Positions 1 to 3,170 of a DNA stretch of 64,000 bases are shown here, piece after piece (positions within the stretch are counted from its first letter, which is position 1; each line of letters opens with the position of its first letter). Source of the stretch: a virus (Duplodnaviria > Heunggongvirae > Uroviricota > Caudoviricetes). The position numbers were made by a program, and so were the translations under genes. A model generated the notes under the pieces. The model had not been told where the DNA came from. It saw only the letters and a program-made list of their open reading frames with translations, and made no database searches. The stretch is taken from IMG/VR virus record IMGVR_UViG_2684623127_000006; one strand, written 5' to 3'.

Positions 1-450
1 GTTAAAAAGCCGGAACCGGAATCAAATCACAGGATGACCATCTGCCAGTGGCTGGTCGTAAAAAAAAGCCGCGCCATGCGCAGCCGGAAATAAAGGGATA
101 ACGATGATAGTTTGAGAAAAACAGAAACAACACTTTTGTGGCAAAGCATGGTGCCGGGTGCCTCCCGGTGAATTCAGTATCAGCACCTGAATCCGCGATT
201 ATCCCATATACCTGGTTGCTGATCGCCCCTCCGCACAGGGGGATTCACCATGCAGAAGTGTTTTTAATAAACAGCAAACAAAAAAATCAAGCATTATGCA
301 GGCTGTTTCTTTTTATCACCGGCCACAGCAATACCACAATGCCGCAGACCAGCACCCCATCCGCCAGCACCGACATGATTCTGCTGGTGAAATCCACCAT
401 CACCACCAGAAACAGCAGGAGTGCAGCCACAGCCAGGCGCAGTTTTACCG

Positions 451-882
451 TCACAGGTGATTCTCCAGACGAAGACCCAGAACACCGGCAATCTCTTCCA
501 GCACCTTGCGCTCTTCCGGCTCAATTTCGCCGTCTGCCTCCGCAATGGCCACCGCCACATCCAGCACATCTTCCGCTTCACGCGTATCGTGTTTCACATC
601 CTCAATCTCACGTAACGCCGCACGACGACCAGTTTTAAAGTTCGTATCCAGCTGACCGATAATGGTTGCGCTAATCGCATTAATTTCTGACGTAAACGCG
701 GACAGCGCAGGCTGATTACGCAGTACCTGTTCGATCTTCGCTTTCTCGGATGCCTCACATTCACCATCTGCACAGGCCACCAGGTATGCGGCGTTAATCA
801 CCACCTGTGCCAGATCGCGTTTTTCAAACTTTTTAATTTCCGTTGCCGCTCTGCGGGTTTTCTTTTTGAAGATTCCAAACAT
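451..882 (-). CDS. TerB-like (tellurite-resistance TerB family) protein
   Basis: 144-aa ORF starting MFGIFKKK; C-terminal ADGEIEPEERKVLEEIAGVLGL resembles TerB family; lies downstream of phage tRNAs where stx sits in Stx phages. Confidence 0.55.
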   Translation of the reverse strand: MFGIFKKKTRRAATEIKKFEKRDLAQVVINAAYLVACADGECEASEKAKIEQVLRNQPALSAFTSEINAISATIIGQLDTNFKTGRRAALREIEDVKHDTREAEDVLDVAVAIAEADGEIEPEERKVLEEIAGVLGLRLENHL

Positions 883-1051
883 CGTGACGTTCCTTTGGGT
901 GGGTGAGCCAACGCCCGGGAGCGATCTGCCCACAGAGAAAGTCACACTGACCACTCCGTAAGCTCACCCCCGAAAGGCTCTGTGGTTGGTATGCGCCGGG
1001 CGTGGCGCAGATACAAAAAAGGCCCGCCGAAGCGAGCCTGGAAAATAAGTG

Positions 1052-1128: not shown

Positions 1129-1141
1129 AGAATACCGATAA

Positions 1142-1221
1142 TGGACCGCCATCGGGGACCCGGCCCCGCACCAACAACCCTGTTATGGTGTCGTCTGCTC
1201 TTCCTGATAAGCTAATGGCGG
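1142..1221 (-). tRNA. degenerate tRNA-like element (probable tRNA pseudogene replacing the Arg-UCG tRNA of prophage 2)
   Basis: Acceptor-stem ends CCGCCAT/ATGGCGG and CCA conserved with 49064-49140, but internal arms diverged; 6-nt T-loop without TTCGA consensus, no clean anticodon arm. Confidence 0.3.
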
Positions 1222-1228
1222 TTTGTGA

Positions 1229-2603: not shown

Positions 2604-3170
2604 TCAAAAAGCAATAACTTTTTTCTCTATACCAAAAGCCATAACCATTGGTTTGTACAAAATAAATTCTGCCACCTTTAGCCAATGCTCAATGCGTCTT
2701 TCACAGGTTCTTAAACTCCATTCCGGATGTGCATCATTCAGCAATTCAGCCATTTTGCGCTTAGTCATCCCCCGCCCCACATAACGCTGACTCAGAACAT
2801 TGAGCAGCCCGGGATAACCTGCCAGTACTTCACCAATAACCCTATCGATTATTAACGCCTCTGAATCGGTACAATGTGCCAGCCAGCTTTTTTGATTGCC
2901 GTTGATCATATCCCGCAAAAAAGCCTCAAGTTCAGGTTTGTCCAGACCCGCTTTTTTCATCCTCCGGAGCGCCTCGTTAATTGCCGTTTTTGTCAGCTTT
3001 TTAGAGGTCAGTAATTGGTTGAACATATTTCCCGTCTTACCGTCGCCAATATACGACCAACGCCCCCACATACGCAGTTTCCCCTGGATCCAGACACTTT
3101 CCAGCGTTTTCAGGCGTAAATGCTCACCGCTTTTGCCTGTAATTTCCGGGTATATCATATTTATGCTCAC
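2604..3170 (-). CDS. putative late-gene antiterminator Q-like protein
   Basis: 188 aa; position between rusA and tR-prime/tRNAs; WGRW motif region resembles Q family (QuuD-like ERWGAW); assignment by synteny and weak similarity. Confidence 0.5.
   Translation of the reverse strand: MSINMIYPEITGKSGEHLRLKTLESVWIQGKLRMWGRWSYIGDGKTGNMFNQLLTSKKLTKTAINEALRRMKKAGLDKPELEAFLRDMINGNQKSWLAHCTDSEALIIDRVIGEVLAGYPGLLNVLSQRYVGRGMTKRKMAELLNDAHPEWSLRTCERRIEHWLKVAEFILYKPMVMAFGIEKKVIAF

Follow-up and report, generated by a model that had tools for sequence, protein, structure and literature searches.

The present study concerns tciA, a gene of the TerB family, in a 64,000-nucleotide (nt) stretch of DNA from a virus of the class Caudoviricetes (IMG/VR record IMGVR_UViG_2684623127_000006); the whole of this stretch is referred to here as the window. 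The window matches the tandem of prophages Sp11 and Sp12 of Escherichia coli Sakai, and each of its two prophages carries the gene (copy 1 in prophage 1, copy 2 in prophage 2). Both Sakai counterparts, ECs_2190 in Sp11 and ECs_2265 in Sp12, bear the label 'TciA/TerB-like protein'. At these loci tciA is the first part of a cassette that continues with the overlapping gene tciB (DUF3927) and an STnc100 small RNA (sRNA), with intrinsic terminators on either side. Copy 1 is intact. Copy 2 is frameshifted at a run of seven A residues (A7) close to its start codon, and the origin and consequence of this extra A are our main subject. The tciA features are as follows.

451 to 882, minus strand: intact tciA copy of prophage 1 (Sakai Sp11 ECs_2190 type), TerB-family, 143 amino acids (aa), ATG start; identified by open reading frame (ORF), Pfam, PHROG, 2JXU, P1 TciA and the AlphaFold2 (AF2) model.
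48369 to 48801, minus strand: frameshifted tciA copy of prophage 2 (Sakai Sp12 ECs_2265 type), with the conserved ATG at 48801.
48777 to 48783, minus strand: A7 run, the site of the +1 insertion; A6 in the in-frame sister alleles, by allele comparison.
48751 to 48801, minus strand: truncated 16-codon frame from the conserved ATG, MFGIFGKKSPQSGNGN followed by a stop, by reading of the sequence.
48795 to 48797, minus strand: TTG used as the start of a 142-aa 'intact' coding sequence (CDS; MVFLVKKARR...) by RefSeq/PGAP and in the Sakai record.

ORF calling and direct reading place copy 1 of tciA on the minus strand from the ATG at 882 to a stop at 453-451, giving a protein of 143 aa with the N-terminus MFGIFKKKTRRAATEIKK. 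The conserved ATG of copy 2 lies at 48801-48799, and not at 48815, where the initial annotation of this DNA had put the start. Read from this ATG, the frame encodes MFGIFGKKSPQSGNGN and is ended after 16 codons by a TAA at 48753-48751. The body of the gene lies in the +1 frame relative to the ATG and stays open until the stop at 48371-48369. The first ten codons are ATG TTT GGA ATC TTC AAA AAG AAA ACC CGC in copy 1 and ATG TTT GGT ATT TTT GGT AAA AAA AGC CCG in copy 2, whereas from codon 15 to the stop the two copies differ by one synonymous base. Over about 1.3 kb, the regions of the two copies align with 97% identity.

The TciA protein is TerB-related, as the initial annotation had proposed. 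Copy 1 matches the Pfam family TerB (PF05099) with 53.4 bits and the body frame of copy 2 matches it with 52.4 bits, against a gathering cut-off of 24.4 bits, and PHROG 632 ('tellurite resistance') gives a full-length match. The solved Klebsiella TerB (2JXU_A) aligns with an E-value of 2.9e-7 (34 bits), query residues 15-137 corresponding to residues 21-144 of the 153 in the chain. An AF2 model built from 42 homologues has six helices, with a predicted local distance difference test (pLDDT) score of 82.6 and a predicted template-modelling (pTM) score of 0.77. The best Foldseek matches of this model in the PDB were 2H5N (probability 1.00, TM-score 0.53-0.60) and 2OU3 (probability 0.84), whose record reads 'tellurite resistance protein of COG3793', with weak E-values of at least 0.016. 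These two structures provide the fold support, 2JXU itself not being among the Foldseek PDB matches listed. Furthermore, TciA holds two acidic ADG-x5-E motifs (A38-D39-G40...E46 and A116-D117-G118...E124), a repeat that we take to be characteristic of TerB. Across the 42 homologues G118, E46 and E124 are invariant, and the remaining motif positions are conserved in at least 90%. The NCBIfam profiles yielded sub-threshold DjlA and YmfL matches alone and no named equivalog.

The extra A of copy 2 is widely shared. An 87-nt probe for the A7 allele, reaching from the Shine-Dalgarno sequence as far as codon 22, was matched exactly against complete E. coli genome records. It was found in 548 of them, with a median of 2 copies per genome and usually two or three, in O157:H7 (Sakai included), O111:H8 and other strains. 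The same probe on the same haplotype with A6 was exact in 3 records. In all, tciA has roughly 5,500 locations in 1,293 E. coli genomes. Among IMG/VR prophage contigs, there were 48 A7 loci and 45 A6 loci, and an A8 tract was found at none of the IMG/VR loci. In-frame A6 sister alleles (MFGIFGKKARRAA...) occur in O145:H28 and other E. coli, where PGAP annotates the gene from its ATG. Since such sister alleles exist, A7 is, on comparison of the alleles, a real and derived +1 insertion (A6 to A7). The initial annotation had described one extra nucleotide at the A7 run that cuts the frame after 16 codons, and the A6 alleles make this description literally right.

The homologue comparison that had been suggested as a check points to an N-terminus under constraint. 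A start of the form MFG-x-F-x-KK is common to the homologues of phages of E. coli, Klebsiella, Salmonella, Serratia, Pantoea and Erwinia (n = 42); F2 and G3 are conserved in at least 90% of them and K7 is invariant. Homologues from other genera thus keep the in-frame MFG..KK N-terminus, and only a single allele lineage, of E. coli, has A7. Within this lineage further changes are found. In IMG/VR, a GAG-to-TAG change at codon 46 is present in 30 of the 45 full-length A7 loci, as against 1 of 34 A6 loci. Exact matches to the TAG allele occur in 340 genome records, and PGAP flags this allele as a pseudogene with an 'internal stop'. The ratio of non-synonymous to synonymous polymorphism (pN/pS) is 0.046 for the in-frame alleles (19 haplotypes; segregating variants 67 synonymous versus 15 non-synonymous). 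It is 0.18 for the A7 alleles without TAG (9 haplotypes) and 0.88 for those with TAG (5 haplotypes with few differences).

Loss of function is suggested because the MFG N-terminus is conserved, the A7 alleles have added TAG and their pN/pS is raised. We therefore regard it as likely that these loci are a tciA-tciB cassette in the slot used by stx, in which the tciA of prophage 2 has become a pseudogene or a severe hypomorph through a heritable A6-to-A7 insertion. The insertion, eight codons into tciA, would uncouple the conserved ATG and its Shine-Dalgarno sequence from the TerB body, while tciB and the STnc100 sRNA would stay intact beside the disabled gene. A7 would have arisen in one allele lineage, spread by phage recombination among prophages of the enterohaemorrhagic E. 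coli (EHEC) type, and then decayed further. With an intact paralogue in Sp11, the Sp12-type copy is redundant, and its decay would be tolerated for that reason. Most likely, this is a plain decaying accessory gene rather than a regulatory device.

Several points weigh against this reading. The body of the window's own A7 copy is otherwise perfect, with a single synonymous base separating it from the intact copy, and this copy shows no sign of decay. The TAG change probably happened once and was then carried along by linkage, and hence it counts as one extra lesion, not many. For the A7 alleles, pN/pS was computed from small numbers of haplotypes (9 and 5), and recombination with intact alleles confounds the values. 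Besides, a TTG in the body frame, 4 nt past the ATG, could share the Shine-Dalgarno sequence at a spacing of about 12 nt, and some full-length protein could be made from the A7 copy through it. The dependence of the cassette on the late antiterminator Q is inferred from synteny with stx2 and a simple promoter scan. Finally, we found no experiments on the function of TciA or TciB in any phage in the literature.

One alternative, which we consider unlikely, is that the A7 copy functions from the TTG at 48797 as a 142-aa TciA with its first five residues changed. RefSeq/PGAP and the Sakai record each list precisely such a CDS (429 nt, 142 aa, WP_001303509.1), starting at the TTG 4 nt past the ATG and carrying no pseudogene flag. 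The body frame is open and near-identical to the intact copy, and the KKARR stretch is kept in the TTG-start protein. The first 16 residues have low confidence in the AF2 model and may be flexible, and the A7 allele is very common. However, a better-spaced and stronger start codon is favoured in initiation, and the ATG four bases upstream, which is both, should take most of it. The TTG-start protein also loses F2 and G3 of the conserved MFG motif. Its MVFLVKK N-terminus is met in the A7 alleles of E. coli only, and outside the A7 lineage no homologue has this start. Moreover, two thirds of the A7 alleles carry a nonsense codon in the TTG frame, with raised pN/pS. The 'intact' CDS is thus probably an annotation rescue, and the RefSeq call (WP_001303509.1) would lead analyses of EHEC prophage pangenomes and gene content to over-count intact tciA.

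It is more doubtful still that the A7 allele is maintained because it is useful, with tciA off or reduced to a trickle (through the TTG or rare slippage) and tciB and STnc100 still expressed. If this were true, poly-lysogenic EHEC would carry a dosage-tuned or tciB-only cassette. The high frequency of the allele (548 records, several copies per genome) would then come from selection and not from hitch-hiking.

We give very little credence to the idea, also raised in the initial annotation, that A7 is a recoding or switching device tuning a Q-dependent late gene by +1 frameshifting, transcriptional slippage or reversible A6/A7 phase variation. A homopolymers are known slippage sites, and the very start of a gene is an economical place for a switch. 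Other rare frameshift variants lie in the same A-rich 5′ end (P0015/P0103, P0032/P0037), and three genome records hold A6 on the A7 haplotype. However, 7 A is short for transcriptional slippage, which is efficient from about 9. Recoding would require a +1/-2 shift, and the next zero-frame codon after the run is AGC (AAA AAA AGC), which is neither a hungry nor a stop codon. Folding found no structure close downstream of the run, the first stable stem lying about 40 nt away with a z-score of -1.4. The slippery run is not conserved among homologues and belongs to one lineage, and the downstream frame is often broken by TAG (30/45 full-length A7 loci). Programmed frameshifting and transcriptional slippage were rejected on the unconserved run, the lack of nearby downstream structure and the unpreserved downstream frame. 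Phase variation was rejected on the tract lengths: on the same haplotype A6 stands at 3 records versus 548 for A7, and A8 was not found in IMG/VR, so switching would be rare.

Although homopolymer errors are frequent on some platforms, it is hardly conceivable that this assembly gained the extra A through a consensus or sequencing error, since the identical 87-nt A7 allele recurs in 548 independently assembled records (3 with A6) from many laboratories and platforms, Sakai included and often in several prophages per genome, as well as in 48 IMG/VR prophage contigs. Among the three options of the initial annotation (pseudogene, sequencing error or slippage-prone control), a pseudogene or severe hypomorph is the sole survivor, on the strength of the conserved N-terminus, the TAG change and pN/pS.

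The remaining features of the two cassettes are listed here in the direction of transcription.

1020 to 1039, minus strand: intrinsic terminator after tRNA-Arg(TCT), left edge of the cassette, copy 1 (terminator scan; a homologous terminator precedes stx2A in Sp5).
883 to 1019, minus strand: 5′ leader of tciA, rich in GC and containing a long hairpin and, at 967-971, a G5 tract (from the sequence; fold z-score -2.4).
287 to 454, minus strand: tciB (DUF3927), a small hydrophobic protein of 55 aa, copy 1 (Pfam, PHROG; Sakai ECs_5731).
110 to 282, minus strand: STnc100-family sRNA downstream of tciB, copy 1 (Rfam RF02076, 104.7 bits).
67 to 85, minus strand: intrinsic terminator closing the cassette, upstream of the off-window nanS-p, copy 1 (8-base-pair (bp) stem with 6 GC pairs, then T8).
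48943 to 48960, minus strand: intrinsic terminator after argO, copy 2 (terminator scan; homology with Sp5 stops about 17 nt downstream, at 48926).
48205 to 48372, minus strand: tciB copy 2, intact, with A8T as its sole amino-acid difference from copy 1 (sequence comparison).
48028 to 48200, minus strand: STnc100-family sRNA, copy 2 (Rfam, 101.8 bits).
47985 to 48003, minus strand: intrinsic terminator closing the cassette, upstream of nanS-p (47890-46040), copy 2 (terminator scan).

On direct reading, the GTG start of tciB overlaps the tciA stop as GTGA and has its own GGAG 8 nt upstream. Its assignment rests on Pfam DUF3927 (62 bits) and PHROG 1470 'TciB-like' (E-value 4e-30), and tciB is intact in every allele inspected, including those with a doubly broken tciA. 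Both STnc100 scores lie above the Rfam gathering score of 47 for RF02076. The tciA of copy 1 is preceded by a Shine-Dalgarno sequence, AAAGGAA, at 890-896, 8 nt upstream of its ATG. The leader also holds a poly-G tract of variable length within the stem of its long predicted hairpin, G5 at 967-971 in copy 1 versus G10 at 48884-48893 in copy 2 (both minus strand). A moron, or autonomous cargo cassette of a late operon, would be flanked by a terminator and have a promoter of its own. The cassette has terminators at both ends, and a crude scan of the same strand between the upstream terminator and the tciA ATG gave no consensus match to a sigma-70-like promoter in either copy. Late-promoter control dependent on Q is established for stx2. 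By analogy, transcription of the cassette would most likely come from the late promoter, with Q-modified polymerase passing through the terminators that flank it.

The initial annotation had placed the TerB-like gene at the locus equivalent to stx, and both the Sakai annotation and the alignment break points bear this out. Sp5 of Sakai has the order Q, ileZ, argN, argO, stx2A, stx2B and a nanS-p homologue, and Sp12 has Q, ileZ, argN, argO, the TciA/TerB-like gene, ECs_5733 and nanS-p. In blastn, Sp5 and Sp12 are 92% identical across the tRNAs and the argO terminator until window position 48926. The leader, tciA and tciB have no similarity to Sp5, which holds stx2AB there; similarity to Sp5 is regained at 48189, within the STnc100-like stretch, and there is a further match at nanS-p. 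Because homology with Sp5 breaks just past the argO terminator and returns after stx2B, the slot of the tciA cassette is, as judged from these alignments, the same as the stx slot at nucleotide resolution. The sRNA-like element would form the right border of this cargo slot, since the STnc100 region of copy 2 is 72% identical to the Sp5 stretch downstream of stx2B. Thus, tciA-tciB and stx2AB appear as interchangeable cargo, bordered by a conserved tRNA and terminator segment and, at the opposite end, by an STnc100-like sRNA, and the shared break points offer a convenient natural framework for studying the effects of non-toxin cargo under Q control. The order of tRNAs, TerB-like ORF and nanS-p that had been given for both prophages holds for both; the nanS-p of prophage 1, however, lies beyond the left end of the window, and only the corresponding Sp11 record of Sakai shows it (ECs_2189).

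The surroundings of the two cassettes differ in several respects. Prophage 1 has two tRNA genes only (window 1129-1228, minus strand), an ileZ-like CAT and argO TCT; the tRNA-Met(CAT) of ARAGORN is ileZ (tRNA-Ile) in the Sakai annotation. At the position of the argN (TCG) of prophage 2, prophage 1 holds a diverged remnant that ARAGORN does not call. Two extra ORFs, at 1333-2046 and 2182-2502 on the minus strand, lie between Q and the tRNAs in prophage 1 only. One encodes an AraC-family regulator with YdeO and GadX as its best, sub-threshold NCBIfam matches, its Sakai CDS being shorter (ECs_2191, 588 nt), and the other encodes a 106-aa protein with a weak TrmB-like helix-turn-helix. The antiterminators are unrelated, DUF1133/PF06530 in prophage 1 (2604-3170, minus strand) versus PF06323 in prophage 2 (49434-50129, minus strand), yet the DNA from the tRNAs through tciA-tciB is almost identical between the prophages. 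This combination indicates modular recombination, with a putative junction near codon 10 of tciA. Directly downstream of the prophage 2 Q, 49345-49417 on the minus strand gives a weak isrK-like Rfam match (22.7 bits versus a gathering score of 50). A 10-bp bidirectional terminator-like hairpin lies at the same place (49347-49370), and the stretch may correspond to the region of the short late-promoter transcript.

Other forms of the locus were also seen. Rare E. coli variants (P0006, P0066, P0015/P0103, P0032/P0037, P0010/P0014, P0042) include TciA-TciB fusions and independent frameshifts in the A-rich 5′ end, and within the same set of proteins TAG is also found changed to TGG or lost through an in-frame deletion. 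A third prophage type, from E. coli O157:H7 PV15-279 (L104, 1405-3082), has a tciA with A7 and TAG after Q and no annotated tRNA genes in between. The nanS-p/DUF6645 gene downstream of this tciA also carries a frameshift flag, so that tciA is not the only late-region cargo to decay.

The gene family (through P1 TciA), the locus (through the Sakai labels) and the stx cargo slot are already known and annotated, and the frameshift is a common allele. The closest named relative of copy 1 is P1 TciA, with 40.6% identity over residues 1-143 in tblastn. Homologues occur in P1, P7, D6, lambdoid, N4-like and jumbo Erwinia phages, and TciA/TciB is widespread in P1-like, lambdoid, N4-like and jumbo phages. 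The frameshift itself is undescribed in the literature found (the P1 CRISPR interference (CRISPRi) screen, a survey of P1-like phage-plasmids and a Pas sRNA preprint), in a search swamped by the homonyms 'TCIA' (the cancer imaging archive) and TcIa of T. cruzi; two further matches, on terbium and on the replication terminus TerB, were false. As it stands, the finding has little biological weight; its practical points are the likely RefSeq mis-annotation and the clean cargo break points.

With regard to function, PADLOC returned a sub-threshold match of 13.9 bits for TciA and nothing for TciB. An assignment to anti-phage defence was dropped, there being no PADLOC match above threshold. The ter operon is associated with tellurite resistance, phage inhibition and colicin resistance. 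TciA has a TerB domain and is obligatorily paired with a tiny membrane protein, and the phenotypes of the ter operon are related to the membrane. On these grounds, we tentatively suggest that TciA and TciB might be a dispensable, membrane-associated pair that buffers stress on the envelope or the proton-motive force late in induction, a possibility that we hold to be less probable than not.

TerB of the terZABCDE operon is exemplified by Klebsiella TerB, the IncHI2 plasmid R478 and the O157 ter island. TciA shares with it the Pfam family, the size (143 versus 153 aa), a near full-length alignment with 2JXU, both ADG-x5-E motifs and a helical predicted fold. In contrast, TciA is only a distant relative and has a 55-aa DUF3927 protein as its partner. 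The tciA loci hold no terC-, terD- or terZ-type neighbours, and their neighbours are tRNAs, tciB, STnc100 and nanS-p.

The resemblance to the tci module of P1 is closer. Each has a TciA homologue and, after it, a small membrane ORF of the TciB type (PHROG 1470, DUF3927), in both the genes adjoin phage tRNA genes, and in both the module is accessory. In P1, tciA, tciB and tciC were non-essential in a genome-wide CRISPRi screen (PMC10695390), and tciABC has been lost from about half of the P1 subgroup-1 phage-plasmids (PMC9603915). P1 is a plasmid-prophage, whereas the genes of the window occupy a late-operon cargo slot of lambdoid prophages. P1 tciA has its own annotated promoters, whereas the consensus scan found none here. 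Furthermore, tciC was not identified in the window, where no search with a TciC sequence was made and the 200 nt past tciB are STnc100.

The stx2AB cassette of Sakai Sp5 and 933W lies, like the tciA cassette, after Q, ileZ, argN, argO and a terminator and before an sRNA-like region and nanS-p, and Q-dependent late control presumably applies to the tciA cassette too. The cargo of stx2AB is a secreted AB5 toxin, in contrast to the cytoplasmic and membrane TerB pair described here, which has no known virulence role. Lastly, the A7 allele resembles the ordinary homopolymer frameshift pseudogenes of prophages in poly-lysogenic EHEC. As with these, a +1 insertion in a short A run has been moved by prophage recombination, the genome also holds an intact paralogue (the Sp11 copy), and a nonsense mutation has followed as a secondary lesion. 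It differs from them in that the A7 tciA has been rescued by annotation with a near-cognate start and is listed as intact (WP_001303509.1).

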